Assembly (NCBI GenBank): GCA_027064425.1
Contig: JAMOPO010000052.1
Span: 1 to 64,000 of the forward strand
DNA from: Methanobacteriota archaeon
Lineage (GTDB): Archaea; JAADCQ01; Methanopyri; Methanopyrales; Methanopyraceae
Direction of reading: 5' to 3'
DNA length: 64,000 nt
A model generated the notes under the pieces. The model saw nothing but the letters and a program-made list of their open reading frames with translations, was not told the origin of the DNA and searched no databases. Of this stretch, positions 12,104-53,691 are shown piece by piece. Position numbers and translations under genes: made by a program. Position 1 is the stretch's first letter, and every line of letters starts with the position of its first letter.

Positions 12104-12165
12104 GGACGGTCACGTCCCCCGCCCCGGCCGCGACCCGAACGATAACAGCCTTGCGGGAAGCGAAA

Positions 12166-12189
12166 CGTTACGAAATTCGTAACGATTCC
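12166..12189. repeat. Dyad motif CGTTACGAA-A-TTCGTAACG-ATTCC, copy 1, in the 3' trailer of tRNA-Asp
   Basis: Perfect 9-bp inverted repeat; near-identical copy at 29366-29389. Confidence 0.85.
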
Positions 12190-12194
12190 TCGTT

Positions 12195-12272
12195 TGGCGC
12201 CCCGGCCGGGATTTGAACCCGGGTCCCGGGCTCGACAGGCCCGGATGATAGACCGGGCTACACCGCCGGGGC
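12195..12272 (-). tRNA. tRNA-Asp(GTC), encoded CCA, C at position 8
   Basis: GCCCCGG/CCGGGGC acceptor stem, anticodon loop CT-GTC-GA, GGTTCAAATCC T-arm. Confidence 0.97.
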
Positions 12273-12308
12273 GCCCTCGCTCCCATGCCCCGCGCGGTTC
12301 ACCCCCGC

Positions 12309-12322
12309 TTATAAACTTTTCT
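12309..12322 (-). promoter_or_regulatory. BRE/TATA promoter of tRNA-Asp
   Basis: AGAAAAGTTTATAA on the minus strand ~40 nt upstream of the tRNA. Confidence 0.7.
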
Positions 12323-12323
12323 C

Positions 12324-12761
12324 CTACCGCTCACGGACCACCGTCACCTTCGACCCACTCACGATCACCCGATACCGCGCCCACATCCCCTCAACAGGGT
12401 TCGAGATCTCGCTCACCGACTTGGGCCTGCCGTTGACCGCCACGTAGACGTGGAACAGCACGTTGCGGTACAGCAGCTCCCGCACCGCCTCCCAGTTGGT
12501 GCCGCTAAAACCCAGCTCGAACGTCACCTCGTTATCCGTACAGACCACCCGCCTGACCCAGAGCCGCCCGGACACCGACCCGCCCTGATACGTGATCCCC
12601 ACCGCCACCTCGTCGCACGTCTTAGCCACCGCGTCGGTCGCCGCCTTCTTCACGCAGTACCACTCGTACTCCGGGCCCAGGTACCCGACGGCGAGGGCGC
12701 CGACCAGGCCGACCAGGACCATCGACAGCAGCGCGAACTCGACCGAGATCTGGCCCCGCAC
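12324..12761 (-). CDS. Class III signal peptide protein (minor pilin-like)
   Basis: RG|QISVEFALL followed by a hydrophobic helix. Confidence 0.85.
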   Translation of the reverse strand: MRGQISVEFALLSMVLVGLVGALAVGYLGPEYEWYCVKKAATDAVAKTCDEVAVGITYQGGSVSGRLWVRRVVCTDNEVTFELGFSGTNWEAVRELLYRNVLFHVYVAVNGRPKSVSEISNPVEGMWARYRVIVSGSKVTVVRER

Positions 12762-12774
12762 CGCGTGATTCCCC

Positions 12775-13362
12775 CTACCCGGCCGGGATCACGTAGAACC
12801 CGAAGCTGAACGGCTGACCGGAGGTGGAGCACCACCACTCACTGCCCGGCGGCCACTCGTTGACCTGGACGATGGAACCCCACTGCCGGTAGGCGTTCGG
12901 GTCGATCATCACCACGCCCGGCCTCCACGGGGAGAGCGACCCGAGCAGCACGGGCACGTCGACGACGACCTCCACCTTCCTCTCCCACCGCCCACCCAGC
13001 TGCAGCACCACCTCGATCTCACCTATCGTGAGCCCGCTCACGGAGGCCAGCTCCTTGGCCCGGAGCTTCAGGTAGTACTCACTGTCACCGATGCGCTCGG
13101 GCAGGTAGACCTGGTTGGCCGTGGCCTGCCAGTCCGGCAGCCAGCTGATGGTGCCCGCCACGGCGCTCGCCACGTAGCTCGCGATGCGGTGCGCCTCAAC
13201 CAACGCCGAGATGTCGCCCGTGCGCAGGAAGGTCTCCAGGACGGAGTTGGCGAAGTAAAACCCCACCAACAGCATGACCAGGAAGAGCAGAGAGAACTCC
13301 AGCGTAACCTGACCGCGGCTAAGCGTTGCGCACGACCACGACCTTCCGACCCTTAACCTCAT
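12775..13362 (-). CDS. Class III signal peptide protein (minor pilin-like); start uncertain
   Basis: RG|QVTLEFSLL followed by a hydrophobic helix. Confidence 0.8.
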   Translation of the reverse strand: MRLRVGRSWSCATLSRGQVTLEFSLLFLVMLLVGFYFANSVLETFLRTGDISALVEAHRIASYVASAVAGTISWLPDWQATANQVYLPERIGDSEYYLKLRAKELASVSGLTIGEIEVVLQLGGRWERKVEVVVDVPVLLGSLSPWRPGVVMIDPNAYRQWGSIVQVNEWPPGSEWWCSTSGQPFSFGFYVIPAG

Positions 13363-13780
13363 GGACCTCCACCACCACCAGCCCCGGGACCTTCACCCCG
13401 CTGGTGTCGAAGCTCACCCCGAAGCTCGAGAAGAACCGGGCCTTACCTTGAGCGTTCTCCCCCGAAACGACCACGGTGTACACGTCCTGGCTCCCCGGTG
13501 GCGGCGGCTCCACGGAGACGGAGTACCGGCGCTCCCCGGCGCCCGGCCTCCCCCGAATGTACACCTTGAACGTGGTGCCCTCATCGCACTCGGCCGCCTT
13601 CTCCAGCACGTCGGCCAGCTGCTCCGCCATCGACTTCGCCTCCAGGGCCGACTCCGCGCGCTCCGCGTGCCCGAGGCCCCCCTCCACGTAGGAGAGGACG
13701 ACCGCTAAGAGGCCGACGCAGGCCAGCAGGAGCAGTCCGTACTCAACGGTGACCTGACCGCGGAGAGATTTAATAAGCAC
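13319..13780 (-). CDS. Class III signal peptide protein (minor pilin-like)
   Basis: RG|QVTVEYGLL followed by a hydrophobic helix. Confidence 0.85.
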   Translation of the reverse strand: MLIKSLRGQVTVEYGLLLLACVGLLAVVLSYVEGGLGHAERAESALEAKSMAEQLADVLEKAAECDEGTTFKVYIRGRPGAGERRYSVSVEPPPPGSQDVYTVVVSGENAQGKARFFSSFGVSFDTSGVKVPGLVVVEVHEVKGRKVVVVRNA

Positions 13781-13818
13781 CGACCCTCCCCCCGGACGGG
13801 GGAGAGGGGGCTGGGCGG

Positions 13819-16407
13819 GTGCCCCGCGGGCGCGGCCAGATATTCACTTTGGACGCAGCCGTGGCACTATTATTAGCTTTGGTAGCCATCTCCGCCGCCC
13901 TGAGTTACGTCCACATCGCCCGGCCCACCACGTACTCCGGCCAGGTCCAGGTCTCCACGACCGCCGTGGTCCAACCCGTTAAGTGGGGCTGGGTCGCCAC
14001 CGGCTCGTTCAGAGGCGAGCTTCCCCACCTCGAGGTCAAGGAGGTAAGGATCACCAACTGGCATAGGAAGGGATGGTTCCACCCGAACGTCTACTACTCC
14101 GCGCACGTCGACATCCGCGTCCCACCCAAGAAGAGGATCGTAACAGCCTTCCTAGTTCTCATGATCGGAGACAACCACGTGGTTGAAGCGTTCGACGCTA
14201 AGGATCGAGACCTCGGTGTCTTCGTGACGGTCAACGGGGTCAAGTGTCGCGTTTTCCCGACCGTGCCGATCGACTGGAAGGGGGACGTGGGCTGGAAGCG
14301 TTACAACCTGTACACGACTTACAACGGCCGCATTTGGGAGAAGACCGTCATCGACCTGACCGTGGACCCGTGGGGCAACCCGCTGCTCGCCAAGCGCACC
14401 GACAAGGATCACATCAGCCTTGACATAAAGATCCGCGTTCGGGGGTCTTGGGGAGAGCGGTACCTGAACAGGACGCGCGTGATCATGGTGCTGGCACCCG
14501 ACTGCTACGACGTGGCGGTCCGGACGTGGCTGCCGCAGGGAGAGCAGACGGGCCCGTGCCCGGCCAACAAGAACGGTAACCCCGTTCGCGGACCCATCGC
14601 TCGCAACTTCGATGAGGCGAACGACGGGAGGCACCCCGTGACGAACTTCGCGGACTGGTACGGCCAGGACCTCGATGACGATCCCCAAAACATCACCATC
14701 CGGGACTTGATCAACAAGATCGGGCCGGCGCCGTGGAAGGTGAGCGACGCGCCGGACGTCATCGTGGACAGGCGCTCCTGGTACTACGCCTGGTACCTGA
14801 CCGCCGGGACCGGCGACGCGCAGAGAGCCGACGTCAACATCGACCCGAGGGACCCCAACGGGGACGGTATCGACGGGATCCTGCTCCGCGCCACGGGGGA
14901 CAGGGTTGGCCAGGACTACCGACTGTTCGCCGCCTACGTCATGATGCCCCGGACGTTCTCATCCTGTGTAACGGCGGACGCGCCCCGGCTCGCCCTGACC
15001 CGGGACACGTCCAGCTTCAGCGCCCCACCCGAGTTCGTGGTGCACGCGGGCTTCCGAGACCCCACCTACGTCGACTCCTACTTCCTGTCTGACCCGACCA
15101 AGTCGCTGGGAGGGGACTGTCGGAGCGCCACGCCGATCCGAGGCCGCCTCTACTGGCCGGTATGGAGGCCGTGGTACGAGGTAAACATCTGGAACCTCAC
15201 GCCGGACATGCTGAAAAAAGGAAAGAAGTACGAGGCCAGCGGCGAGTGTCGCGTCCTCGAGGCCTCGGACCGCTGGTACATGAACTACGCCGGGGTACCG
15301 CCAGACTACCCGTTCGGAGCGGCAGGGTACGGCCACCTGGTCATGATCGACCCGCACGCTCGGTGGTCACCCGACACCAACGAGACGGTGGAGGACGTCC
15401 TGCGGACCCACAACACGCTCCGAGCCTACCTGCTGATCCCCAACCGTGGCGGCGGACCGCACATCTACTGGTGGTTGAATTACTACAAGGACGGTCACCG
15501 GAACAACCCGTGGATGAAGTTCCCGGGCGGGTTCGCCGTCCAAGGAGGCCCGCAGCCTCGGCTGGTTACGGTCTGGATCCGCGCTCCGGGATGGCTCTTC
15601 CAGTGGAACCCGTGGACGGATGGGACCAGGACGACCAAGTTCGGCTTCGCCAACACGCGGTTCAAGAACGTGCCCGGCGGCGACCGGCCCGACGAGCTCG
15701 AACTGTCGTTCAAGATCAGCCGGCCTCCCGGGATGCCGAGCTACATCAGGTACTGGAGCGTCCAGGACGTCTACATGTTCGGCAACATGGACGAGGACCC
15801 TGACATGTTCCGGCTGTACATCGACGGCCGGCAGGTGTGGGACGACAAGTGGGCCCCGCCGGTCATCGAGGACCTGAAGGCGCTCTCCGGCGGCGAGGTT
15901 GCGACCCCGGGCCAGCACACGGTCCGGATCTGGGAGTACGAACAACCGTCACCGGAGGCGGTGGAGATCGGCCCGTACAGCGTCCTGGTCCTTTACCGAG
16001 GCATATTCTACGTGACCGTGCCGACGCTCCAGCCGACGAAGCGGGATGCTGTCGAGAAGGCCAGGCAGATGGTGACGAGCATCCTCAACTACCTCGGCAT
16101 CCGGGATCAGAAGTTCATCAACGAGAACCTCCGGATCACCGTCGCGCCCGCCCGGGGCTACGGAAAGCCCCACCAGTTCAAGCTGGTGCTTAAGGGTCCG
16201 CACCCGCCGGACGAGCTGAGGAGAATGGCCACGAGGATCCTATCCCAGATGCAGTCCTCCGGGATCCTGAGCTACATCGCGATGTGCGAAGAACACGGTC
16301 GACCGTTCGACACGAACGCGATCAAGGGCTACATCGAGAGCGTGCTCTGGGGCGACGTGCACTACGAGCTGTACATGGACGGCCGGCTGATACTCAGTGG
16401 CCCGTAA
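13819..16407 (+). CDS. Large (862 aa) pilin-like/adhesin protein with class III signal peptide
   Basis: RG|QIFTLDAAVALLL; W/Y/N/G-rich, beta-rich extracellular-type body. Confidence 0.8.
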   Translation: MPRGRGQIFTLDAAVALLLALVAISAALSYVHIARPTTYSGQVQVSTTAVVQPVKWGWVATGSFRGELPHLEVKEVRITNWHRKGWFHPNVYYSAHVDIRVPPKKRIVTAFLVLMIGDNHVVEAFDAKDRDLGVFVTVNGVKCRVFPTVPIDWKGDVGWKRYNLYTTYNGRIWEKTVIDLTVDPWGNPLLAKRTDKDHISLDIKIRVRGSWGERYLNRTRVIMVLAPDCYDVAVRTWLPQGEQTGPCPANKNGNPVRGPIARNFDEANDGRHPVTNFADWYGQDLDDDPQNITIRDLINKIGPAPWKVSDAPDVIVDRRSWYYAWYLTAGTGDAQRADVNIDPRDPNGDGIDGILLRATGDRVGQDYRLFAAYVMMPRTFSSCVTADAPRLALTRDTSSFSAPPEFVVHAGFRDPTYVDSYFLSDPTKSLGGDCRSATPIRGRLYWPVWRPWYEVNIWNLTPDMLKKGKKYEASGECRVLEASDRWYMNYAGVPPDYPFGAAGYGHLVMIDPHARWSPDTNETVEDVLRTHNTLRAYLLIPNRGGGPHIYWWLNYYKDGHRNNPWMKFPGGFAVQGGPQPRLVTVWIRAPGWLFQWNPWTDGTRTTKFGFANTRFKNVPGGDRPDELELSFKISRPPGMPSYIRYWSVQDVYMFGNMDEDPDMFRLYIDGRQVWDDKWAPPVIEDLKALSGGEVATPGQHTVRIWEYEQPSPEAVEIGPYSVLVLYRGIFYVTVPTLQPTKRDAVEKARQMVTSILNYLGIRDQKFINENLRITVAPARGYGKPHQFKLVLKGPHPPDELRRMATRILSQMQSSGILSYIAMCEEHGRPFDTNAIKGYIESVLWGDVHYELYMDGRLILSGP

Positions 16408-16576
16408 GTGAGCCGAAGCGAGTGGTGATGAGGGGAGCTGAAAGGACGAGGCTCGGGCGGGGTGCGGGAGGGAGCCGGGCCGGAGGCGAGAATCAGGAGA
16501 ACCGGGGCGGGGCGGGTGCCGTCGGCGCGCCTTGACGCCCCTCGGTGCCTCCCGACGCTCTGCTTCTCCCCGCTCT

Positions 16577-18238
16577 CTAGGCCCTGGGCCAGACCTTGAT
16601 CACGTGCCCGTTCTTCTCCACCATGCTCGTGTTCGTGCCGGGCAGTATGAACCAGTTGAGCAGCGAGACTCCGGGCAGCGCGAACCCCTTCGGTTCGGCG
16701 TCGGTCGCCACCTTGATTCCTATGGAGCGCAGTACGGAGACGATCCGCTGAACGGTCCTGTCGCCCGAGTTGAACCCGTACAGCCAGAACAGGTGTACCG
16801 GGTGGTACCACTGGTCGGTGGCCTTGTGGCTCACCCACCTGTACATGGCCCCGCGGAGCCCGGGGGAGCGCGTGCACAGGGCCTCCATCCACGCCATCCA
16901 GTCCACGGTCCCGTGCGGGCCGCCCGGCAGGACGGTCACGTACTGGCTCGGCAGCGCCGGGATGAGCGTCTCCATCCCTACCCTACACCTCCATACGGCG
17001 TCGAAGCCGGACTTGATCCCGTCCACGGACAGCGTGTTCCCGTCCGGCAGCACGTAAAGGATGCCGGCCGCCCGCTCGACGAAGTTGGGCGGTCGGCCGG
17101 TCTCGTCGTTCCACCTTACCGGGAAGTACGGTTGGATCACCCACGGCGGGTCCTCGGGGCGAACGTCAGGGGGCATGCTGACATCGTCCCACGGTAGCGA
17201 CTTGGCCGGGACCGACAGCATGTGAGCCAGCCGGAGCTTGTCGGCGTCGTAGGTGCTGTTCCGCCCCTCCCCGTTGACCCAGTTCAGGTACGCGTGGAAG
17301 AACCGGATGGCGTCCGACTGCTTGATCGGCTCCCCGGCGAGCGTGCCGGCGTTTCCTACCGCGATCTGGTAGTTGCCCGGAACCAGCTGGGGCTTGAACC
17401 TCAGCGGTGGGTTATCGCCCCACCTCGCCTTGGCCGCGTAGTACGCCCAGATCGGGAGCGGGTCCAGGATGGGTCGATGCTCCCAGGCCACGACCGGCGC
17501 GTAGCCCTGAACGGACACCGTCACGGTGGTTTGGCCCAGGTCCATGTAGATGAGCTCCCACCTCGGTGCCTGCACGATGAGCGTTAACTGCACCCGAACG
17601 TAGAGCGTGGACGGGTCGTCCGAGCTTGGAACGATCGGCATGCTGCCGACGGACGACGGGTCCGAGGGGATGTATCGCGGCAGGTAGATGCGCCAGGTCT
17701 TGAGGTCCAGCAGCAGCGCCGGTTCCCCGGTCACGTAGCACCGCGGGATGACCCAGACCTCGGCGTTGGTGTTCCGCTTGATCTTGTCGTGGATGTCAAC
17801 CGCCAGCCGCGCGAACTCGTAGTCGATGTAGTACCTGAGGGACTCGATCACGGTCTTGTACGAGTCGTAGCTGCCGTCCAGGGAGCCCACGTCCACGAGC
17901 CGGTAAGGGGCCGCCAACCCCTCCGGGGTCACCCACTCGATGTTCGATCCGCCGGCGTGGACGGCCACGTACCCGTTCCTGTACCCGTTCGTACCGCCCT
18001 TGGGTAGGTTCACGCCGTTGATGAAGTCCACGACTCCCAGGTACGCGGCGCGGCTGAGCTTCTGATGCGTCATGGCCAGGACGGCCTGATTGACCACCGG
18101 CTTGATGTACTCGGCCCGAACGATGTACCCGCTCTCACGGCCCATGAACGTTAGGTACGACGTGGACAGTAGCAGCAGAAGGATGGCGAAGGCCACGATG
18201 GGGGTGAAGATGAACCCGCGCTCGCGGCGCGCGATCAC
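16577..18238 (-). CDS. 553 aa class III signal peptide protein (pilus-associated)
   Basis: RERG|FIFTPIVAFAILLLL N-terminus; inside the pilus operon. Confidence 0.75.
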   Translation of the reverse strand: MIARRERGFIFTPIVAFAILLLLLSTSYLTFMGRESGYIVRAEYIKPVVNQAVLAMTHQKLSRAAYLGVVDFINGVNLPKGGTNGYRNGYVAVHAGGSNIEWVTPEGLAAPYRLVDVGSLDGSYDSYKTVIESLRYYIDYEFARLAVDIHDKIKRNTNAEVWVIPRCYVTGEPALLLDLKTWRIYLPRYIPSDPSSVGSMPIVPSSDDPSTLYVRVQLTLIVQAPRWELIYMDLGQTTVTVSVQGYAPVVAWEHRPILDPLPIWAYYAAKARWGDNPPLRFKPQLVPGNYQIAVGNAGTLAGEPIKQSDAIRFFHAYLNWVNGEGRNSTYDADKLRLAHMLSVPAKSLPWDDVSMPPDVRPEDPPWVIQPYFPVRWNDETGRPPNFVERAAGILYVLPDGNTLSVDGIKSGFDAVWRCRVGMETLIPALPSQYVTVLPGGPHGTVDWMAWMEALCTRSPGLRGAMYRWVSHKATDQWYHPVHLFWLYGFNSGDRTVQRIVSVLRSIGIKVATDAEPKGFALPGVSLLNWFILPGTNTSMVEKNGHVIKVWPRA

Positions 18239-19215
18239 TCGGGCTTAACCCCCACCTTCAGCCTCACTGGGAACAGCCCGCACGCCCAGGTCAGCGTGCC
18301 CGGAAGCTGCTGGAACTCTCCCAGGCCGACGCCGGCGGGCCGCGAGAGCCGCAGCTGGACGAGGAACCGATCCCCACCGATGGCCAGCACGGTGATCGAC
18401 AGGCCCGAGCAGGTCCCCTCCGAGATCACCTTTCGGATGAAGTCCACGGGGTCCTCCGAGACCCATCCCGTCGAGGAGTAGAACATGATTTTATTGCCAC
18501 CGGAGTCGATCAGGAGCGCCTCCCGGGCCAGCTTCCGGTACGCCTCGTCCTCGGACAGGCCCGACTCCACCAGCTGGTTGAACCGACGGTGCAGGTACAT
18601 CACCCACCAGCGCAGGCCCGCGCCGGACAGCGTCACCCACGCCACCTTCACGCCCGGCACCGTCGCCGGGTAATACAGGACGATCCGCCCCTGGTCCCCA
18701 CTGGTCGACGCCCAAACCTGCGGTAGGTTATCGTCCCACACCCACGTGTCGGCGCGCTTAACCAGCGCCACCCGGTACGATTTTACGATCATCTCTCCGG
18801 GCGCGCCGGCCTGCCCCGCACCGACGTCATCCCGAGGGAAGACCAGGTCCGCCGTGGCGTTACCCACCTTGATCGGGCGATCCAGCCCGCCCGCGCACCG
18901 AACCCACTTGTACGCGTCCACGGCCAGGTACATCCGGTACCCGGAGCGGAGCGGCGCCAGAGCCCAGCTCGGTCCCCACCGGATCGTGGGCTCTCCCGGG
19001 TTCACGAACGACTGCCACGTCAAGTTGGTCCCGACCCAGGACGGAGAGAGCAGGGTCGTCACGAACCGGTCGACCGAGGAGTAGGACTTGTGCACGCTGG
19101 TCAGGTAGAACAGCCCGTGCGACTTGATGATGCCGGCTACGCTCGTCAGGATGAGCAGTATTAGGGCCGAGATCAGCGAGGCCGTGAGCGCGTCCAGCGT
19201 GAGCTGACCCCGCAA
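18235..19215 (-). CDS. 326 aa class III signal peptide protein (pilus-associated)
   Basis: RG|QLTLDALTASLISALILL. Confidence 0.78.
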   Translation of the reverse strand: MRGQLTLDALTASLISALILLILTSVAGIIKSHGLFYLTSVHKSYSSVDRFVTTLLSPSWVGTNLTWQSFVNPGEPTIRWGPSWALAPLRSGYRMYLAVDAYKWVRCAGGLDRPIKVGNATADLVFPRDDVGAGQAGAPGEMIVKSYRVALVKRADTWVWDDNLPQVWASTSGDQGRIVLYYPATVPGVKVAWVTLSGAGLRWWVMYLHRRFNQLVESGLSEDEAYRKLAREALLIDSGGNKIMFYSSTGWVSEDPVDFIRKVISEGTCSGLSITVLAIGGDRFLVQLRLSRPAGVGLGEFQQLPGTLTWACGLFPVRLKVGVKPE

Positions 19216-19218
19216 GGC

Positions 19219-19416
19219 TCACGATCCCGCCGAGCTCTCCATGGCCCGTCGGACGACCTCGTCCGCCACCACGCTCATGGCCTGACTCCATCCGGACCCA
19301 ACCGTGTGCACGAACGTCCTCAATCCCATGGCGAACACGGCCACGGTCACGATGACCGCCATCAACAGTAGGGCCATCTCCAGAGATACCTGCCCCTTAC
19401 ACCCACCGGGACGCAC
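19219..19416 (-). CDS. Small pilin-like protein; start uncertain (GTG 19416)
   Basis: KG|QVSLEMALLLMAV matches the QxSxE pilin motif. Confidence 0.8.
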   Translation of the reverse strand: MRPGGCKGQVSLEMALLLMAVIVTVAVFAMGLRTFVHTVGSGWSQAMSVVADEVVRRAMESSAGS

Positions 19417-19642
19417 ACTCGGCGATCGCCCGGGCGGCAGAGCTCTCAGCGCTGCCAACGTCCACCAGCCCCTGACTCGTCGATCCTACGGACGAGGTGA
19501 AGTACCACGCAATGACGGCGGTCAGCCCGATGACGACGATCAGCATCAACAGCGCCTCCACACCCGTCTGACCGCGCTCACAGCTTCTTACTGTTAACGC
19601 TCTCAGCGAACCCCACGAGGCCCTGAGAGACCGTGGAACCAA
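19397..19642 (-). CDS. Small pilin-like protein; start uncertain
   Basis: RG|QTGVEALLMLIVVIGL. Confidence 0.75.
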   Translation of the reverse strand: MVPRSLRASWGSLRALTVRSCERGQTGVEALLMLIVVIGLTAVIAWYFTSSVGSTSQGLVDVGSAESSAARAIAECASRWV

Positions 19643-19772
19643 GGCTTCCGGCCCCCTGTCCCAGCTGCGAGGCCGCCGCGTACACGAAGTACCCTATGAC
19701 GGCGGCCAGCCCCACGAAGGCGGCGAGAATGAGCAGGTTCTCAACACCGCCCTGTCCCCTCACCCCCAGCAT
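19578..19772 (-). CDS. Small pilin
   Basis: RG|QGGVENLLILAAFVGL; similar to the 21825 and 22129 pilins. Confidence 0.82.
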   Translation of the reverse strand: MLGVRGQGGVENLLILAAFVGLAAVIGYFVYAAASQLGQGAGSLGSTVSQGLVGFAESVNSKKL

Positions 19773-20746: not shown

Positions 20747-20750
20747 GCGA

Positions 20751-21800
20751 TCACACCCGAAGCACCTCGATCAACAGCGAGAGGCCCTTGAGCACGTCCC
20801 CCTCACTTAGCCGCTCCAACGCCTTCTTGGACAGCTCTCGCTGAGAGCTGACCCCCGCCGCGACGTCACCCTCCCCCAGCGTCTCCTCCTCCCGCATCTT
20901 CAGCCTGCGATGCAGCTTGCGCACGGCCCCGATGACCGTGGCGGACCTCAGCACGCGCTCTAGCTCCTGCGTGTATTCTTTCCCCAACTCCTCGTGGAGC
21001 CTGGAGCAGACCCGCAGCACTCGGTCCAGGTGACGCACGCTCTCGCTGCTGAGGTGCCCCAGCAGCAGCTCCCGATCCCCGATCTCCCGCACGAGCCGAG
21101 CGTGCAGCGACCACACCTTCGACATGACTCTCAACACGAGCCGCTCAACGTCCGTCAGCACCCCATCCTCACCGAACCTGCACCGGCGAAAGAGGCCCTC
21201 GGACCGCGCCTCCTCACCAACCTCCTTCAGCGCCTCGGAGAGCGGAAGCACCTCGAAGGAGCCGGCGATCGTCTCGAACACCCTCACCGCCCGGGACAGC
21301 GGCAGCTCGTTCCCGGCCCGAAGGACCACCAGGTCGTACCTGTCCGCCCGCTCCACGACCCGCTTGACGCACTCGCCGTCGTGCACGTCGCACGTGATGG
21401 GAACCTCCGTCACGCCGTCGATCTTCAACACGCCACCCTTCGAGTAGAACCCCGTTGAGTCCACGTCGATCACGTCCGACAGGGCGCGGAGGTGCTTGCG
21501 TCCCATAGCCAAGTAAGGGGCCCTGAACGCGTCCCCCAGGCAGCCGCTCGTAGCGCGCGCGTGGTCCAACAAGTCCTCCTTCGGGACGAACGAGGCGGGC
21601 ACGTCGGATACCACGGGGCAGTGGACCTCGCCGGAGAACTTCTCCAGCTCGTCCCTAACTTTCCTCAAAGTAATGTAGTCCGAAAATAACGTGACGCCGT
21701 TGATATCTGCCAGCTCACCGAGCACCTGGCGCGGTAATTCGCCGAACCCATCCACGGTCAAAACAAAAACTGTCAAGGTGCGGGGGGCCCAGGGCGTCAC
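20751..21800 (-). CDS. Hypothetical protein; N-terminal half resembles a degenerate NodB/CE4 deacetylase
   Basis: LTVDG, FRAPY, DST, EVPIT in CE4-like spacing; metal-binding His residues not evident. Confidence 0.5.
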   Translation of the reverse strand: MTPWAPRTLTVFVLTVDGFGELPRQVLGELADINGVTLFSDYITLRKVRDELEKFSGEVHCPVVSDVPASFVPKEDLLDHARATSGCLGDAFRAPYLAMGRKHLRALSDVIDVDSTGFYSKGGVLKIDGVTEVPITCDVHDGECVKRVVERADRYDLVVLRAGNELPLSRAVRVFETIAGSFEVLPLSEALKEVGEEARSEGLFRRCRFGEDGVLTDVERLVLRVMSKVWSLHARLVREIGDRELLLGHLSSESVRHLDRVLRVCSRLHEELGKEYTQELERVLRSATVIGAVRKLHRRLKMREEETLGEGDVAAGVSSQRELSKKALERLSEGDVLKGLSLLIEVLRV

Positions 21801-21824
21801 TGGGCCTGCGGTCGCCGCTCTCGC

Positions 21825-22061
21825 TTACCCTCCGCCTCCTCCTGGCTGGTACTGGTTCCACGCCTGGGTGCCTGCCTGCGACGCCTTAGTCGCGGCCTGG
21901 GATGCAGCACCTGACGCGCTCTGACCGGCACCGCTGTACGACGTCAGGAAGTAGTAAGCCACTACTGCCGCGAGACCGATCAGCGCCGCTAGCAGGAGCA
22001 GGTACTCGATACCACCCTGACCGCGCTCCTCCTTGAGCAGCTCCTTGATCCGGGCCAGCAT
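21825..22061 (-). CDS. Candidate major pilin
   Basis: KEERG|QGGIEYLLLLAALIGLAAVVAYY; short A/S/Q/G-rich body; ATG with G-rich RBS and AT-rich upstream gap. Confidence 0.85.
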   Translation of the reverse strand: MLARIKELLKEERGQGGIEYLLLLAALIGLAAVVAYYFLTSYSGAGQSASGAASQAATKASQAGTQAWNQYQPGGGGG

Positions 22062-22128
22062 CTTCCCGCTCCCCCCGTGACTAGCCGTGTCGGGATCCCT
22101 TACAAAATCTTTTCTCTACCGCGTTTCC

Positions 22129-22323
22129 TCACGGCTTATAATACTGCCACATTTGGACGCCCTGAGAGGCCTTCGTCGCGGCTTGTTCAGCCTCTCCCGG
22201 TATCGGGTTGCCGGCCTGGAAGTACGACGTGATCACGTAGTAGGCCGCGATGGCCGCTATCCCGATAATCGCTGAGAGCAGGAGCAGGTACTCAACTCCG
22301 CCTTGGCCGCGCGATCCCAGCAT
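22129..22323 (-). CDS. Pilin paralogue
   Basis: RG|QGGVEYLLLLSAIIG...QAATKASQ; clearly similar to 21825-22061. Confidence 0.85.
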   Translation of the reverse strand: MLGSRGQGGVEYLLLLSAIIGIAAIAAYYVITSYFQAGNPIPGEAEQAATKASQGVQMWQYYKP

Positions 22324-23337
22324 TTAGGGCCCCCCACCAACCTGGGCGAGCAACGATGGGAAAACCGTTACGAGTCCCAGGTAGGCCATCGCGGACGCCG
22401 TGGAGATTCCGAAGGCGAACTTCAAACCCTCCCTCGGGTCGCCGTACCTGATGATCCCGATCGCGATCCCGGAGAGGAACCCGACCGTGGCGGGGTAAAT
22501 GACCATGTAGCGGGACAGGAGCTGGTACATGGGTAGGAGCGCGCCCATGGTCGTGGCACCTCCCGACTTGGCTCCGAGTCCCATCACGGCCCCGAGGGCG
22601 ACCCCGACCGGGATGGCGCAGATAACCCCTCCCATGCCCATCGTGAGGCAGGGCATGGTGGTCACGGCCTGGCGCTCGAGCTCGATGCGGCGGACCTCTC
22701 GGATGTCGTTCTCCACGGCCTCGAGCACGTCGGCCAGGGTGCCCCCGCTGATTGAGATCCGCACGGTGAGCCGGATGGCGCGGCGGAGGATCTCGGAGTC
22801 GACGCGCTCGGCCATGTCGAGCATGGCCTCCTCGAACGTCTTGCCCATGTCCATCTCTCGCACGACGATGGAGAACTCCTCGGACAGGGCGCCGTAGTTG
22901 CTCTCAGCCACGCTCTTCACGACCTCGAACACGGAGGAGCCGGCGCGCAGCTCCTCCACCATCTGCCGGAGCGCGTCGGGCAGGTTCTCTTCGATCTCCT
23001 TGATCCTGGCGCGCTGGACGACCTGCGGGTAGAGGATCATCGAGGCGGGTAGCGCGATCGGGGCCAGCGCCAGCGGGTGGTGCAGGAGCTTGAGGAGCAC
23101 GAGTCCCAGGACCGCGGTCACGATGCCGTAGAGCACGACGGCGGCCATGTAAATCTCGTACGGGACGTCGACGTTCGTCACACGCAGGAGGTAGTCGCGG
23201 CGCTTCAGCTCGTCCAGGTCCATCCGCTGAACGATGATCCGGGCTATGGGGAAGGAGACGGGGGCCGCCAGCAGGGCCGCGATGCGGAAGAGTGGGCCGA
23301 AGGCCTTGAGCGCGTCCGGGCCGAGGCTCGGGAGCAT
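22324..23337 (-). CDS. Type II/IV secretion membrane platform (TadC/T2SS-F family)
   Basis: IEENLPDALRQM..ELRAG, YGALSEEF, several TM helices. Confidence 0.9.
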   Translation of the reverse strand: MLPSLGPDALKAFGPLFRIAALLAAPVSFPIARIIVQRMDLDELKRRDYLLRVTNVDVPYEIYMAAVVLYGIVTAVLGLVLLKLLHHPLALAPIALPASMILYPQVVQRARIKEIEENLPDALRQMVEELRAGSSVFEVVKSVAESNYGALSEEFSIVVREMDMGKTFEEAMLDMAERVDSEILRRAIRLTVRISISGGTLADVLEAVENDIREVRRIELERQAVTTMPCLTMGMGGVICAIPVGVALGAVMGLGAKSGGATTMGALLPMYQLLSRYMVIYPATVGFLSGIAIGIIRYGDPREGLKFAFGISTASAMAYLGLVTVFPSLLAQVGGGP

Positions 23338-23352
23338 CGTCGCCCCCGCCCG

Positions 23353-24687
23353 CTAGATCTTCGGCTCCATCGCCTTGAACATGTAGAGGAACGCCCCCGC
23401 CAGCATGCCCACCAGCATCGTGACCGCCAGCGCGAACTGGGCTGGCGGGAGCATGAGCGATCCGGACATGTTCGCGGCGATGATCCCGGCGACGAGGAAC
23501 ATCGTGGGCAGGACGATGGTGCACATGATGTACGGGAAGGCCATGGACTGGAGCCGGTGACCGTACTCTCGGTACTTCTGCCGGAGCTCGTGCGCGATCT
23601 CGTCCGCGAGCACCATTAGAGTTTTCGCGATGTTGGCACCCGACTCCATGGCCTGGAGGATGAAGCGGACCGCGGACCTTAGGCCCGGGATGTCCCACCG
23701 GTTGGCCAGCCGTCGGAGCGCCGCCTCGACCGGGGCGCCTCCGTGGATCTCGGCCACCACGCGCTCGAACTCCTCGGATAGGGCGCCGTAGTCTGACTCG
23801 GCGACGCTCTTCATGGACTCGATCAGGGACAGGCCGGCGGAGACCTCGGTGGCCATCTGTCGGATCGCGTACGGGAGCTGCCGGGCGATCTCGTCCTGGC
23901 GCTGCTTGATGCGGATCTGCAGGAAGAGGTTCGGAGCGGCGGCTCCCGAGATGAACCCCACGATCGGCGCCACCGCCTTGAGCAGCGTTGGGAAGGTCAG
24001 GAGGGCCGCGGCCGCCGTCAGTAGTGCGGCCGTGATCGTCGCTGAGAGCCCGATGAGCGATGCGAAGGCGGTCGGGGTGATACCCAGTCCGGCCTTGCGG
24101 AGCTGCTCACGGTTCGGGGCGAACGCTCGGAAGGCCGCGCCGATCCGGGCGGCCATGTCGGACTCCGTGATCGTCTGGATGACCTCCTCGATGGCACCCT
24201 TGCGCTGGGCCTGCAGCCGCCTCAGCCGCTCCTCGAGCTCTCGGGCCTCGCGGTCCCGAGCGGTCTCCGCCTCCTCTTCCTCCTCGGTCTTGAGCACCAG
24301 CTGCTTGATCCGCTCAACGTCCTCGGCGGTTCCGGGTCCTCCGGCGTGGCGCATGGCGCGTGCGCGCTCCGCGACGCTCTCGAACGGTAGGGCCCGGCCA
24401 CCTCCACCTGAGATGCTGCTCAGCGCCTCGGTCACGCGGGCCAGTGGGTTCCCCCCTCCGCCCTCACCTCCCCCGAGCCTGAGCGCGTCGGTCAGTCGCT
24501 CCACCAGGGAGGACAGCGATAGGGAGGCGCCGCCTCCCTCCCGGGTCGAGGTGATCCTGCTGACCTGATGCAGGGCGTACTCCACGTACAGGCCGATCTG
24601 TTCCACGACCCGGAGGCGCGCGGCCAGGAGCAGGACGATCAGGAACGCCGCGGCTGCGGCGAGGAGGAACTGCAGCAGGACGGGCAT
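23353..24687 (-). CDS. Type II/IV secretion membrane platform (TadB/C family)
   Basis: QLPYAIRQMATEVSAG, YGALSEEF, several TM helices. Confidence 0.9.
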   Translation of the reverse strand: MPVLLQFLLAAAAAFLIVLLLAARLRVVEQIGLYVEYALHQVSRITSTREGGGASLSLSSLVERLTDALRLGGGEGGGGNPLARVTEALSSISGGGGRALPFESVAERARAMRHAGGPGTAEDVERIKQLVLKTEEEEEAETARDREARELEERLRRLQAQRKGAIEEVIQTITESDMAARIGAAFRAFAPNREQLRKAGLGITPTAFASLIGLSATITAALLTAAAALLTFPTLLKAVAPIVGFISGAAAPNLFLQIRIKQRQDEIARQLPYAIRQMATEVSAGLSLIESMKSVAESDYGALSEEFERVVAEIHGGAPVEAALRRLANRWDIPGLRSAVRFILQAMESGANIAKTLMVLADEIAHELRQKYREYGHRLQSMAFPYIMCTIVLPTMFLVAGIIAANMSGSLMLPPAQFALAVTMLVGMLAGAFLYMFKAMEPKI

Positions 24688-24688
24688 T

Positions 24689-26485
24689 CTACGTGTACCC
24701 CGAGATGCCCACCTTCTGCAGCACCTCCTCCCGGTTCTTGTAGAACTCGTGGATGAACTCGCCGACCTCCTTGACGTGCCGGATGTTGTTGTCGACCATG
24801 TACTTGAGGATCTGCTTCCTGATCTCCACCTCCTGCATGATCTCGTCCATGCTCATGCCGGTCTTCTCCTGAATCTTCTTGAAAACCATGCTAGGCACGT
24901 CCGTGCTCTCGACCTTGTCCGTCTCCGGCTTCCACTCGAACACGGTGTTCAGCTGGACCGTGTCGCCCTCCATGCCCGCGATCTCTGCGATCTCGGTCAC
25001 GCGGCGGATCGAGCCCGAGCCGCGCTGGATGAAGCGCTGCTGCATGACGATGATGTCGAGGGCCGGGATCATGATCTTCGGCACGTTCATAGGCTCGTTC
25101 GTGAGCCGGGTGATCGTCTCGCGGGCCGTGTTCGCGTGCAGCGTGCCCATGCACCCGTCGTGACCCGTGTTCATGGCGGTGAACAGGGTCCGAGCCTCGG
25201 GACCGCGGACCTCACCCACGATGATCCGGTCGGGCCGCTGGCGCAGGGTGTTCTTGACGAGGTCGTCCATCGTGACCTCGCCCTTCCCTTCCACGTTCGG
25301 CGGCTTGGTGGTGAGCCGCACCCAGTGCTCGTGGGGCAGCTGGAGCTCGAGCGTGTCCTCGATCGTGATGATCCGCTCCTCGGGCGGGATGAAGATGCAC
25401 AGGCAGTTCAGCGTGGTCGTCTTGCCGCTGCTCGTACCGCCCGCGATCAGGATGTTCGCGCCGTGCTCGACGGCGAGCCACAGGTAGGCGGCCGCCTCGT
25501 AGCTGAGCGTCCCGAACTTGATGATGTCCGTGATCGTGAGCGGATCCTCCCGGAACTTTCGGATCGTGATCGTGGGCCCGTCCGGGCTCACGGGCGGGAT
25601 CGTCGCGTTCACGCGGCTGCCGTCCGGCAGGTGCGCGTCCAGCAGCGGGTTCTCCCGGTCGATCCGCCGGCCCGACTCCCTCGAGATCCGCTCGATCACG
25701 GTCCGGGCCGCGCGCGAGGGGATCTTGAAGTTGCACAGGCACATGCCGTGGTCGCGGTCGTACACGTACACGAAGCACTCGCGCGCCTGCCCGCTCAGAA
25801 CGACCTGAGGCACGACCATGATCTCCTCCAGGTTATCGTCCTTGAGCAGCGGGTGGATCTGCTTGTAGCCCACCATCTCGTACACCAGGAGCTGCTTCAG
25901 GTCCTCCTCGATGACCTCCAGCTCCGGGTACTCGTCCAGGACGTTGTCGAAGACCTCCTCAACCTCCTCCTTGAACGCCTTCTCGCGCTCCTCCAGGTTC
26001 GGGTACTCGGTCGGGTCGAAGTCAATGTTCATGGACAGGATGTCCTTCACGTCGTCAAGCACGCGCTCGAACTCCTTGTCGTCGCGCGCGTAGCGGGGCG
26101 CGTTCGCCCCCAGCTTCTTGACGATCTTGTTGCGTAGGTTCTCGAGCTTGTAGTACCGGTTATAGTCCTTCGAGATGTAAATGGGAACGGGCTGATCCGG
26201 GTACTCGATGATCCGGCGCAGCTCGTCGTCGCACAGGACCTTGCCCTCTCCCTCCTCCGCCTTCTCGTGCTTCTCCAGAACCTTCTCCGCCTCCTCCGCC
26301 GGCAGGGGCTTGACCTTACTCTCCTCGGACTCACCCGCCTTCTGAGCCTCCGAGGGCTGGGCCTGAGCTGAGCCAGCCTCTCCCTTTCTCTCCTTCGGCT
26401 TCTCCTCCTCGCCCAGGATGTCCTTCAGGAAATCGTCGTCCTCGAGATCGCCCAGCAGGCCCTTAACGTCCCGCCGCTTGGCCAC
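24689..26485 (-). CDS. Pilus assembly ATPase (VirB11/TadA/CpaF family)
   Basis: [43 protein letters not shown]. Confidence 0.95.
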
Positions 26486-26497
26486 GGGCCGACACCC

Positions 26498-28303
26498 CTA
26501 CTCCAGGTCCTTGAGCAGGTCCTCGACCTCCTCCAGCTCGGAGTCCAGATCCGCCGTCTTTGCCTCCTCGTCGACTCCGGCCCCTTCCTCGACTTTAGCC
26601 GTTTCTTCAGCGGTGGCAGCCTCGCCGGCCTCGGACTCGCCTCCGGACTCGGCCACTTCCTCCACCTCTCCCTCCTCGCCGCCCTCCATGAGCTCCTCCA
26701 TCGCCGTGGCCTCGGCCAGGATCGAGGACTGGAACGTGCCCAGGAACTTCACGTCGGAGAACTCGATGCCCTCGCGTCGTAGGTTCTGGATGAACTGCGT
26801 CGGGGAGAGACCCTCCAGGTCCACGTACACGTCGTCCCCGACGCGGACCGCGCTCCGGACGCCGGGGATGTTCTCGATCCTGTCGGCCTCGTCGCCGGCT
26901 CCCTTGACGAGCACGGTCGTGACCTGGACCTCCGTCTCCTCCGATCCGAACTTGTCCAGGTCCGCCCCGTGCCGCTGCAGCGTTAGCACGATGTGCCGGC
27001 GGAGCGCCTTCTCCACGATCTCCGCGTCGATGACGTCCTTGCCCTCCTGGATGCGGATCGCCTGGGCGATTTGCGCCACGTCGCGCGCGTAAGCGAACGT
27101 TGGCTTGAGACCCCATCCACCCTTCTCCTTCGGCAGGAACGCCTTCCGGTACGTCTCGATGGCGTCCTCCGTGTACTTCTCCCCCATCTCCTCCAGCCGC
27201 TTCCGGAAGAGGTCGACGGCGTCCTCGAGCGGCGGGTGCGTGAGGTGGACGAACAGCGGGGCTCGTCGCAGGTGCGCCTCGTCGAACACGGTGATCGGCA
27301 GGTTGGTCGAGAACGCCGCGATGAAGTCGCAGTAGACCTCCACCGCCGTGCCCGCGACGTGGATGATGTCCTTCTTGTTCTCCATCGGCACGATCAGCCG
27401 GTTCAGGATCGCGATGTGCGAGTCCCGCTGCCGGCCCACGTCGTCCACCAGGAACACGCCACCGTGCGCCTTCACGTGCGGCGGGACCTCGTACACGCCC
27501 TTCTCCGCGTCGTACCGACCCTGCAGGTCGTCCAGCGTCAGCTCGGCGCCCGTGAACACGAACGGGGCGTGGATCTTCACCCAGCGCTCGTCCTCCGGCT
27601 GCTCCCGGCGCGGGCGCGGGTCGTGGAAGTCCGGGTCGTACAGCTGCAGGACGCTGCCCGCCACGTACACGGCCTTCGGGATGACGATCGGCGGCAGGAG
27701 CTTCGCCATCCTGCTCAGCGTGAACGTCTTACCCGTGCCGGGCGGTCCGTACACGATCAGACCGCGACCCGAGGTCGCCGCGATCCGGTAGACCCGCTTC
27801 GCCTCCTCCGCGCCGATCACGTCGTGGAACGCGTACTCGACCACCTCCTCCGGGATCTCGATCGGGTAGCGACCCTCCACCTGCTCGCCGACGATCTCCT
27901 TGTAATCCTCGTACGGAACCGGGCAGACGCCGATGTACGGGTCCTCCTTCATGATGTTCTCGGCCAGATCGCGCCCCTTCGGAGTCACGTCAAAGGTGGT
28001 GTTCTGGAACATCGGGCCGCCACCGGTGTGACCGACCAGTTTCCGGTCCTCCAGCTCGCCCACGATCTCCTCCAGGATGGGGACCGGAATGCGCGTGACC
28101 TCGTAGATCTCCCGGCCCGTGAGCGGGCCCCGGTCCGCGATGACCTTGAGCACGAGGTTCTCCACGTACTCCTCCGGCAGCCCGAGGTCATCGATGGACT
28201 CGGGCTTACGGAGCGACTCCACCAGCTCCACGATCTCAGGCTGGTTGTAATACTCCTCTACCGCCTCGAGCACCTCGCGGGGCAGCCCCTCCTCCTCGGA
28301 CAA
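26498..28303 (-). CDS. AAA+ ATPase with N-terminal winged-helix-like segment and acidic tail
   Basis: GPPGTGKT, FLVDDVGRQ, FSTN, DEAHLRR. Confidence 0.85.
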   Translation of the reverse strand: MSEEEGLPREVLEAVEEYYNQPEIVELVESLRKPESIDDLGLPEEYVENLVLKVIADRGPLTGREIYEVTRIPVPILEEIVGELEDRKLVGHTGGGPMFQNTTFDVTPKGRDLAENIMKEDPYIGVCPVPYEDYKEIVGEQVEGRYPIEIPEEVVEYAFHDVIGAEEAKRVYRIAATSGRGLIVYGPPGTGKTFTLSRMAKLLPPIVIPKAVYVAGSVLQLYDPDFHDPRPRREQPEDERWVKIHAPFVFTGAELTLDDLQGRYDAEKGVYEVPPHVKAHGGVFLVDDVGRQRDSHIAILNRLIVPMENKKDIIHVAGTAVEVYCDFIAAFSTNLPITVFDEAHLRRAPLFVHLTHPPLEDAVDLFRKRLEEMGEKYTEDAIETYRKAFLPKEKGGWGLKPTFAYARDVAQIAQAIRIQEGKDVIDAEIVEKALRRHIVLTLQRHGADLDKFGSEETEVQVTTVLVKGAGDEADRIENIPGVRSAVRVGDDVYVDLEGLSPTQFIQNLRREGIEFSDVKFLGTFQSSILAEATAMEELMEGGEEGEVEEVAESGGESEAGEAATAEETAKVEEGAGVDEEAKTADLDSELEEVEDLLKDLE

Positions 28304-28309
28304 CGGCGC

Positions 28310-28915
28310 TCACCCCGGCGCCCTCAGAACCCAGTAACCAGCCCCTCTGGCCGCCACCTCCGCCGAGCCAAAGGTCTCCTCCATGAGCTTAAGCACGCGC
28401 TCGGCACCCATCTTGCGACGGACCACCAGCCAGAGCTCGCCATCATCCTCCAGATGCCCGGGCGCCTCCTCGATTATTTTGCTAACGATCTCCAGACCCT
28501 CCCGCACCGGCGGGTTGGATACGATCAGGTCGAACGACTCGCCCTCCACCGGCTCGTACAGGTCTCCCCTGCGCACCTCCACCACGTCTTCGACCCCGTT
28601 CAGCTCCACGTTCTTCCTCGCCAACCACACCGCCCTCGGGTTAATGTCCGTCATCACGACGCGGCCCTCGCCCATCTCCCGCGCCGCGACGATGCCCAGA
28701 ACCCCGTACCCGCAGCCGAGGTCCATCACGCTCTCGACCCGGTCGAACGGGGCGGTCTCCGCCAGCAGGTGCGTGCCCTTATCCACCCGCCGCCACGAGA
28801 ACACGCCCGGGGCGGTGAGGAACCGGTACTCCTTCCCCCTTATCCTCGCGATGATCATCCCCATCTCGTCCCGGGAGGGTCGACCGCGCCCGGAGTAAGG
28901 TGCCCGCACGCTCAC
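28310..28915 (-). CDS. Class I SAM-dependent methyltransferase (RsmC/MTS-like)
   Basis: PGVFS..VDKGT, DLGCGYG, SNPP. Confidence 0.9.
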   Translation of the reverse strand: MSVRAPYSGRGRPSRDEMGMIIARIRGKEYRFLTAPGVFSWRRVDKGTHLLAETAPFDRVESVMDLGCGYGVLGIVAAREMGEGRVVMTDINPRAVWLARKNVELNGVEDVVEVRRGDLYEPVEGESFDLIVSNPPVREGLEIVSKIIEEAPGHLEDDGELWLVVRRKMGAERVLKLMEETFGSAEVAARGAGYWVLRAPG

Positions 28916-29040
28916 TCACCCTCGGGCCGCGCGATTGTTTCCGTGCCATCCCACCTCGGCGGCGCAATAACGCTTCCCGCCGCTCGGGGCCGGGTCCCCC
29001 GGGTGAGCCGCGGGGCCGGGCCGGGACCTCCTCGACCCGG

Positions 29041-29055
29041 GTTATATTTTTCTCC
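29041..29055 (-). promoter_or_regulatory. Putative BRE/TATA promoter upstream of the methyltransferase/pilus genes
   Basis: GGAGAAAAATATAAC on the minus strand in otherwise GC-rich intergenic DNA. Confidence 0.55.
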
Positions 29056-29363
29056 AAGTAAACGAGCCGCCGGGGGCTTACGCCTCCCGGCGGCCCCGCG
29101 GTGGAGTACTCTCCGCTCGGTGTGCGCACATCGGATTCACTCTACTGGGTCCGCCGGCAGCGGGCGCTCCGTCAGGGCGCGCGCCGCCCTGACCGTTCGT
29201 CGCTCCCCCTCGGTCGACCCTCCACGGATGGGGGCTACCTCCGAAAGTGTGGATCACGCTGTGACGGTGTGGGAGCCTCGCGCGGGCTGGCCGCTCCGAG
29301 AGCGGCTACAGTGGAACGATTGAGAGGGTGATCGGAACGGGGTGCCCCGGCACCGCGGGCCGC

Positions 29364-29389
29364 ATCGTTACGAGACTCGTAACGATTCC
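29364..29389. repeat. Dyad motif ATCGTTACGAG-A-CTCGTAACGAT-TCC, copy 2, in the 3' trailer of tRNA-Leu
   Basis: Perfect 11-bp inverted repeat; matches 12166-12189 with one compensatory pair change. Confidence 0.85.
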
Positions 29390-29392
29390 GGC

Positions 29393-29482
29393 TGGTGCGG
29401 GGGCCGGGATTTGAACCCGGGACGGCCCTACGGCCACGGGATCCTAAGTCCCGCCCCTTTGACCAGGCTCGGGCGCCCCCGC
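29393..29482 (-). tRNA. tRNA-Leu(TAG), long variable arm, encoded CCA, C at position 8
   Basis: GCGGGGG/CCCCCGC acceptor stem, CGGGA-CTTAGGA-TCCCG anticodon arm, TTCAAAT T-loop. Confidence 0.97.
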
Positions 29483-29510: not shown

Positions 29511-29526
29511 TATTTAACGTTTTCCC
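29511..29526 (-). promoter_or_regulatory. BRE/TATA promoter of tRNA-Leu
   Basis: GGGAAAACGTTAAATA on the minus strand ~30 nt upstream of the tRNA. Confidence 0.7.
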
Positions 29527-35917: not shown

Positions 35918-36199
35918 ATGGCAGAGGAAGAGAACGTCGTCTACGTCGGCAGCAAGCCGGTAATGAACTACGTTTTGGCCTGTATTACGCAGTTCAACGA
36001 GGGTGCTAACGAGGTCCGAATCAAGGCCAGGGGCCGGGCCATCAGCCGGGCCGTCGACGTCGCCGAGATCGTCAGGAACCGGTTCATGCCGGAGGTAGAG
36101 GTGAAGGACATCAAGATTGGAACCGAGGAGCTGGAGACGGAGGAGGGCGACACGGTTAACGTGTCCACCATCGAGATCGTGCTGGAGAAGTCCGTCTAG
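35918..36199 (+). CDS. albA: Chromatin protein Alba
   Basis: [38 protein letters not shown]. Confidence 0.97.
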
Positions 36200-53667: not shown

Positions 53668-53691
53668 TGGGCTCAGGGCTCATAGGGCTCT

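Follow-up and report, generated by a model that had tools for sequence, protein, structure and literature searches.

The 64,000-nt stretch of Methanopyrus DNA analysed here (contig JAMOPO010000052.1, positions 1 to 64,000, referred to as the window) carries directly 3′ of each of two tRNA genes a copy of an inverted repeat with the consensus AATCGTTAYGA-N3-TCRTAACGATT, designated the dyad. Judged from genome sequences, the dyad is a real, selected and genus-wide element, with none outside the genus in the genomes searched. The function that we favour, at a probability of roughly one half, is that of a leaky, two-way roadblock terminator which a dimeric DNA-binding protein would form on the dyad.

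The host is assigned to Methanopyrus on account of C at position 8 in most of its tRNA genes and of a homologue, 73% identical to one of its proteins, that NCBI names Methanopyrus sp. In the source genome (G000; Methanopyrus, 1.54 Mb, 67.8% GC) a T-loop filter reduced 350 permissive ARAGORN calls to 45, from which eight doubtful calls, none with the motif, were dropped and 37 genes ending in CCA were kept; each of these 37 has the dyad behind it, at a distance of 8-13 nt. Among them, three are located on small contigs and have an anticodon that is repeated elsewhere; contigs C16, C18 and C32 hold extra tRNA-His and tRNA-Ser copies with different flanks, which suggests strain mixing in the assembly. 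A weight matrix built from the tRNA sites returned 98 sites of at least 20 bits in the genome and none in the reversed genome. The window copies are thus two of about 98, and with a mean site spacing of 15.7 kb the 17.2 kb between them is typical of neighbours. Other stable RNAs with a downstream site are 5S rRNA (at 14 nt), the signal recognition particle (SRP) RNA (17 nt), RNase P RNA (26 nt) and tRNA-Sec (10 nt), and the 16S and 23S ends each have two sites behind them. Among the 61 sites away from CCA-ending tRNA genes, 44 lie between two genes called with our own gene caller, mostly 14-36 nt past a stop codon, and non-tRNA sites occupy 12 of 75 convergent gaps as compared to 2 of 166 divergent gaps (P 2e-5). 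Of the 49 genes upstream of sites 45 were scanned, with an NCBIfam match in 25; genes preceding a site include those for ribosomal proteins S10, S15, L7Ae and L32e, EF-1 beta, the thermosome, McrB, AtpA and HdrA, together with the ordinary genes purM, truD and thrC. Behind the thermosome gene two dyads overlap (C3:131780 and 131797), with one in G002, a second genome of the genus. The dyad behind atpA (G000 C3:145634; G002 C1:981466) has the centre GGGGG and is followed immediately by the start of trmY, whose ribosome-binding site it overlaps in both genomes.

All six genomes of the genus contain the dyad. A survey of T-loop matches in these genomes, which covered 30 of 34 loci in G001 and 30 of 33 in G005, gave 188 matches, five of which were cut by the end of the locus, while 182 had a site and one, which did not look like a tRNA, had none, corresponding to 182 of 183 scorable matches. 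In G002, 103 sites reached at least 15 bits, the reversed control yielding 3 at 14 bits and 1 at 16, and orthologues of site-followed genes were again followed by a site in 23 of 39 cases as compared to 24 of 1325 other genes (median protein identity 75%). The bias towards converging genes recurs there, with 19 of 108 convergent against 7 of 202 divergent gaps (P 5e-5). At 53668-53691 of the window a convergent gap between cooT-like and pyrF-like genes has no site, whereas its counterpart in G002 has one (C1:700297), which indicates that dyad sites are gained or lost. Outside the genus, the strict dyad pattern was absent from 35 other archaeal genomes, a loose pattern gave 0-7 matches in 61 genomes around G007 as compared to 0-32 for the reversed pattern, that is, chance level, and a longer pattern scanned across GTDB gave five matches, four of them in archaeal bins and one on a bacterial contig without tRNA-like context by eye. 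Viral spread of the dyad was considered and dropped, as no match was present in viral contigs. An earlier note on this DNA had taken the element to be selected, and this is borne out by its enrichment at tRNA and rRNA 3′ ends across the genome and its retention behind orthologous tRNAs; the enrichment at tRNA ends, for which the note had suggested a genome scan, applies to practically all tRNA-type matches (182/183), yet it is not limited to stable RNAs, as dozens of protein genes share it.

The motif itself is already known, contrary to the statement in the earlier note that no description of it existed. The sequence CGTTA(N)9TAACG was reported ~10 bp downstream of about half of the tRNA genes of M. 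kandleri AV19, where a role in 3′ maturation was speculated upon (PMC5217627, BMC Genomics 2017), and the dyad has this same motif at this place, being identical in sequence, spacing, position and lineage restriction. It differs from that report in that hardly any tRNA gene is without it, in that it also follows protein genes and further stable RNAs, in its DNA character and in the 8-nt boundary described below; these last two and the candidate proteins make the question of its function testable. The accessible portion of PMC3695527 does not mention the dyad, and no literature giving it a function was found in a search that left most subscription journals outside its reach.

Within the window, the dyad 24-mers were confirmed at 12166-12189 and 29366-29389, differing from each other at 2 of 24 positions. 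ARAGORN reported two genes in the 64,000 nt, tRNA-Asp(GTC) and tRNA-Leu(TAG), both on the minus strand, and both 24-mers lie 3′ of them, 5 nt (Asp) and 3 nt (Leu) from the encoded CCA. A 19-nt pattern matched twice exactly and once with three mismatches as compared to 0.19 matches expected, and none of 100 shuffles reached three. On the weight matrix copy 1 scored 47.2 bits, the genome maximum, and copy 2 scored 43.1 bits; the three-mismatch match at 43036 scored -2.4 bits. No third full copy was found in the window by the matrix, the runner-up reaching 11.7 bits (34919), which agrees with what had been noticed before. That weak dyad-like match, at 34919-34937, falls within a called open reading frame (ORF) and is probably due to chance. 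Two 11-nt arms around a 3-nt centre describe the dyad better than the 1-nt centre of the earlier note.

We infer from its sequence pattern that the dyad acts as double-stranded DNA and is recognised by a symmetric dimer of a protein. No variation was seen in the outer GT and AC (182 of 182), CGTT-N11-AACG occurs 95 times as compared to 3-31 times at 30 other spacings, and half-sites are mostly found within dyads (57 of 60 and 25 of 25). Pairing was tested over 143 tRNA-oriented sites of five genomes, these sites being related and the tests therefore not independent. Watson-Crick pairs observed and expected were 44 and 43.2 at ±1, 79 and 85 at ±2, 107 and 107 at ±3, and 66 and 62 at ±4, and no covariation of the inner pairs was found over the 143 sites. 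The exchange of an A-T for a G-C pair between the window copies, earlier regarded as compensatory, is accordingly at chance level (44 Watson-Crick against 43.2 expected).

The same data bear on the idea of an RNA hairpin that would serve as an intrinsic terminator or protect the 3′ end, an explanation which we consider very improbable. As RNA the dyad does fold at 37 °C, with mean energies of -4.4 to -7.6 kcal/mol, copy 1 is picked out as terminator-like by a simple scan, and cell solutes could stabilise RNA folds further. With standard parameters, however, 0 of 143 sites folded at 98 °C and 13 of 143 at 85 °C, covariation is lacking, and at ±4 the transcribed strand holds C.A mispairs in preference to U.G wobble pairs (47 against 17). 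The stable RNA stem with covarying pairs that characterises an intrinsic terminator was thus not found, nor was the archaeal signal of at least four U at the 3′ end: most trailers lack a T-tract, a run of at least four T occurring within 60 nt in 1 of 37 tRNA trailers in the source genome, 5 of 29 in G002, and 3 of 24, 1 of 27 and 2 of 26 in three other genomes. In addition, the RNA end proposed below would precede the dyad. The trailer hairpin for termination or processing offered in the earlier note is rejected on these results, while its preference for a DNA dyad bound by a dimeric protein gains support from them.

From spacing and composition the dyad appears to set an RNA 3′ boundary 8 nt before CGTT. 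Across the six genomes, all 170 CCA-encoding tRNA genes end 8-16 nt from CGTT, none having a spacer of less than 8 nt, whereas in all 12 CCA-less tRNA genes the would-be CCA end is 6-7 nt from CGTT; the latter occur in G001, G002, G003 and G005, CCA being encoded in all 37 kept genes of the source genome and all 27 of G004. Longer gaps mostly reflect A residues added directly after the CCA. The 8-nt spacer is always kept and has a directional consensus of its own, with C at -7 in 132 of 143 sites. At 96 protein-gene ends the frequency of G rises from 0.16 (-14 to -9) to 0.36 (-8 to -4) and that of pyrimidines falls from 0.75 to 0.53, gene ends in general being about 52% pyrimidine (1166 ends), and the C-rich, G-poor tract stops at the boundary shared with the tRNAs. 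The features in the window to which this applies are as follows.

12162..12188, no strand assigned: dyad copy 1, 27-bp extent with a 19-bp core at 12166-12184, from pattern and matrix.
12185..12194, minus strand: gap of 10 nt from the tRNA-Asp CCA to the core, made up of two extra A and the 8-nt spacer, from the sequence and the spacer rule.
12195..12272, minus strand: tRNA-Asp(GTC), C at position 8, encoded CCA, from ARAGORN.
12309..12315, minus strand: TATA-like box upstream of tRNA-Asp, read from the sequence by eye.
10943..12103, minus strand: nurA-like gene, the first of nurA-herA-mre11-rad50-like genes, starting 62 nt past copy 1.
29362..29388, no strand assigned: dyad copy 2, 27-bp extent with the core at 29366-29384, from pattern and matrix.
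29385..29392, minus strand: 8-nt spacer from the tRNA-Leu CCA to the core, from the sequence and the spacer rule.
29393..29482, minus strand: tRNA-Leu(TAG), C at position 8, encoded CCA, from ARAGORN.
29511..29517, minus strand: TATA-like box upstream of tRNA-Leu, read from the sequence by eye.

The RNA 3′ end is predicted near 12193 for tRNA-Asp and at 29393, the final A of the CCA, for tRNA-Leu, and the nurA-like gene is a candidate read-through target beyond copy 1.

In the roadblock that we propose, a homodimeric, sequence-specific protein would bind the double-stranded dyad just past strongly transcribed units and stop RNA polymerase in both directions of travel, leaving a transcript whose end lies about 8 nt short of the CGTT encountered first. 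The end would arise by termination rather than by cleavage, release perhaps being aided by the upstream pyrimidine-rich, G-poor tract in the case of mRNAs and by the folding acceptor stem in the case of tRNAs. The block would be leaky, allowing weaker genes located just downstream to be expressed via read-through. TFS rescues backtracked polymerase, and while it was present above cut-off in four of four control archaea it was found above cut-off in none of the six genomes of the genus, where the sole TFS-like match per genome is a weak N-terminal zinc ribbon match in a frame of ~60 aa (G000 C15:25482-25592 and orthologues); a review names M. kandleri as the one archaeon without TFS (PMC7289017). 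This absence fits a roadblock.

A fixed boundary could also result from processing, in that polymerase reads through and a nuclease, which the element guides on the RNA or through a protein bound to the DNA, generates the mature 3′ ends by cleavage 8 nt upstream. What PMC5217627 suggested for tRNAs would then hold for every substrate. This would account for the fixed boundary and for 12 closely coupled downstream genes, it is in keeping with a spacer that has its own directional consensus, and in all six genomes the tRNase Z-like genes fall below the family cut-off. An RNA signal, on the other hand, needs no perfect, rigidly spaced and unpaired dyad, the substrates are unrelated, and sites are common to convergent genes; we consider such a ruler the less likely explanation, at odds of a few to one against. 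The idea that precise ends had led to the loss of tRNase Z was rejected, a homologue, albeit below cut-off, being present in 6 of 6 genomes.

A second route to the same boundary involves no binding protein: the AT-rich dyad itself would pause polymerase in its right arm, and FttA would then cut 22 nt behind, producing an end 8 nt before CGTT. FttA is intact and above cut-off in all six genomes, and a pyrimidine-rich tract lies upstream. Its cleavage site is 22 nt back from the end of the RNA (PMC11616081), so that the 3′ end of a paused transcript would be at core position 14, within the dyad. In archaeal termination by U-tract and aCPSF1 (FttA) a pyrimidine-rich, G-poor tract likewise precedes the end (PMC11616081), but here the tract is C-rich instead of U-rich and a conserved dyad follows it. 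A factor-free pause leaves unexplained why the bases of both arms are invariant at tRNA genes used in one direction, and FttA products optimally end in U (PMC11616081) where A or C is expected here; we regard it as improbable.

RNA evidence was sought in assembled contigs of two (X1 and X3) of the four available runs over the mcr region of G002, bearing in mind that contigs cannot establish ends; contig depth over mcrB and the genes after it was left out of the evidence, as contigs do not allow genes to be ranked. One A-tailed contig of X1 ends exactly 8 nt before CGTT behind mcrB, which is a weak hint in favour of the 8-nt boundary; as the X1 contig that covers the mcrB site extends no more than 21 letters upstream of it, it was not counted as bridging. 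The mcr cluster (G000 C26:18595-24012; G002 C1:610987-616411) is arranged alike in both genomes, with a TATA-like box before mcrB and, beyond the site and two small genes, fresh TATA-like boxes before each of the last two genes. Only mcrB was named by profile match, and the remaining genes we take, from gene order and size, to be mcrD, C, G, A and mtrE. In other methanogens the mcr cluster forms one transcript; that of Methanopyrus may not be a single transcript. The position of a site within this cluster had at first seemed to speak against termination. The small genes and new TATA-like boxes of this cluster, together with 12 sites in the source genome that have a same-strand start codon at most 28 nt away, imply that the dyad would lower rather than abolish read-through.

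Several observations weigh against the roadblock. The front edge of polymerase extends about 12 bp, for which 8-9 nt is short, and a cut 22 nt behind a stall would fall inside the tRNA, so that FttA could not be the releasing factor there. The 12 near start codons mean that the block cannot be tight, seven sites in G002 and two gaps in the source genome are divergent, and the majority of gene ends have no dyad site. Pairing is in slight excess at ±5 (P 0.045) and ±13 (P 0.013). Deletions within the CCA could have created part of the split between CCA-encoding and CCA-less genes, and the 12 CCA-less cases include orthologues. With respect to the RNA contigs, that of X3 behind mcrB stops 43 nt earlier without a tail, three of four listed tailed positions lie elsewhere than 8 nt ahead of a site, and the ends of both runs behind mcrA fall at TTTTAAA, 26 nt before a weak site which an X3 contig spans; this weak mcr dyad follows closely on the next TATA-like box, a position that would suit a repressor. 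Finally, losing TFS is of little consequence in Thermococcus (PMC10899632), and the TFS link concerns one lineage.

Some of these observations would suit an architectural or insulator site, on which a nucleoid-type protein sets chromatin or supercoil boundaries while RNA ends arise from other signals. The dyad character, the even spread of one site per 16 kb, the divergent and promoter-near sites and the mcrA end at a T-tract are all compatible with such a role, which nevertheless predicts neither the sharp 8-nt minimum tied to CCA nor the composition step at -9, and which we hold to be rather unlikely.

As to the protein that would bind the dyad, three HTH_1 genes recur in the genus, located in the source genome at C15:5699-6016, C15:44657-45574 and C29:14813-15571. 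Their products are a LysR regulator of the selenium type, a LysR/ModE hybrid of 252 aa (five of six genomes) and a 105-aa stand-alone ModE domain (six of six). A homologue search with the small ModE-type protein returned five proteins of 61-98% identity, and its putative recognition helix has E in the four genomes whose dyad consensus is stricter, as compared to G in the other two, where the consensus is looser, a difference that probably reflects a single event. These ModE/LysR-type genes are leads only as candidate dyad binders. Since parts of the dyad are similar to Lrp, NikR and Zur motifs as well, motif resemblance is weak evidence.

ModE boxes read GTTATGT-N8-RCATAAY in Methanosarcina acetivorans (PMC12327845) and ATCGNTATATA-N6-TATATANCGAT elsewhere (PMC545781). 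The half-site ATCGTTAT / GTTATG is common to box and dyad, GTTATG being the proven archaeal ModE half-site (PMC12327845), and GTTATG / ATCGNTAT is indeed present in the dyad, but the GTTATG and CATAAC halves are 10 bp apart in the box and 5 bp apart in the dyad, and ModE boxes lie at molybdenum-gene promoters while dyads lie at gene ends. LysR-type sites follow T-N11-A, for instance ATAC-N7-GTAT for BenM (PMC11495319); 178 of 182 dyad sites share T-N11-A, the dyad reading TTAY-N7-RTAA, and the genus has two LysR-type genes, the differences being the 3′-end location and the longer invariant flanks of the dyad. The promoter placement of LysR operators was not encountered, as the dyad is depleted from divergent gaps in both G000 and G002. 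The Lrp/FFRP site TvFL3, TACGA-WWW-TCGTA (PMC2715240), equals the inner 13 bp of copy 1; the dyad centre is, however, not restricted to A/T (G at -1 in 19 of 37) and its inner bases vary, unlike that site. An Lrp/AsnC binder was rejected, PF01037 being found in none of the six genomes and the 12 HTH_AsnC-type matches of the source genome belonging to other proteins.

A possible functional parallel is offered by eukaryotic roadblock terminators, of which TTF-I, Reb1/Nsi1 and mTERF1 are named examples. Their DNA site follows the RNA end of the most highly transcribed genes at a short, fixed distance, as that of the dyad would. The dyad differs in being palindromic, two-way, archaeal and present at about 100 loci including mRNAs. 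In general terms, the Pol I terminator factors of eukaryotes are described as acting as protein-bound roadblocks (PMC13675443).

The two window copies flank a type IV pilus-like locus (12324-26485) that comprises a prepilin peptidase, an ATPase, two T2SSF proteins, a class III signal peptide ORF and several unknown ORFs, and which is collinear in G002 at 45-80% identity. These copies flanking pilus genes, and the C at position 8 of both window tRNAs, had led to the proposals of a recombination site that excises the 17.2-kb locus and of a signal for C8-to-U editing, both of which we reject, giving neither more than a slight chance. About 98 copies exist, their spacing here is typical, no viral contig matched, and in G002 the locus is collinear together with flanking core genes and with sites behind both tRNAs, all of which argues against recombination. 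Most tRNA genes of the source genome have C at position 8, yet all four of the 37 with T8 carry the dyad, as do rRNA, SRP, RNase P and protein genes, which leaves editing without a footing. Adjacent to tRNA-Leu, between it and an aspartyl-type tRNA synthetase gene, is a 411-aa ORF (29526-30761, minus strand) with no Pfam match and no BLAST match in G002, where its neighbours are directly adjacent. Elsewhere in the window are an Alba gene at 35918-36199 (plus strand), which is 99% identical to that of G002, and, at 59329-59604 (minus strand), a small gene with a histone fold.

On a wider and more doubtful view, which we advance tentatively, Methanopyrus, being without TFS, would have turned a bacterial-type ModE/LysR domain into a genome-wide roadblock terminator, a convergent counterpart of TTF-I/Reb1/mTERF, with many tRNAs born CCA-ended and expression stepped down within operons such as mcr. 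Archaeal termination is described as driven by U-tracts and FttA, and a DNA dyad that fixes the RNA end in a hyperthermophile of very high GC content would, if true, constitute a third route. It would also represent a sharp test of how transcripts are ended when growth temperatures close to 100 °C melt hairpins and few U-tracts are present, and the dyad may explain how unequal amounts of subunits are obtained from one operon.

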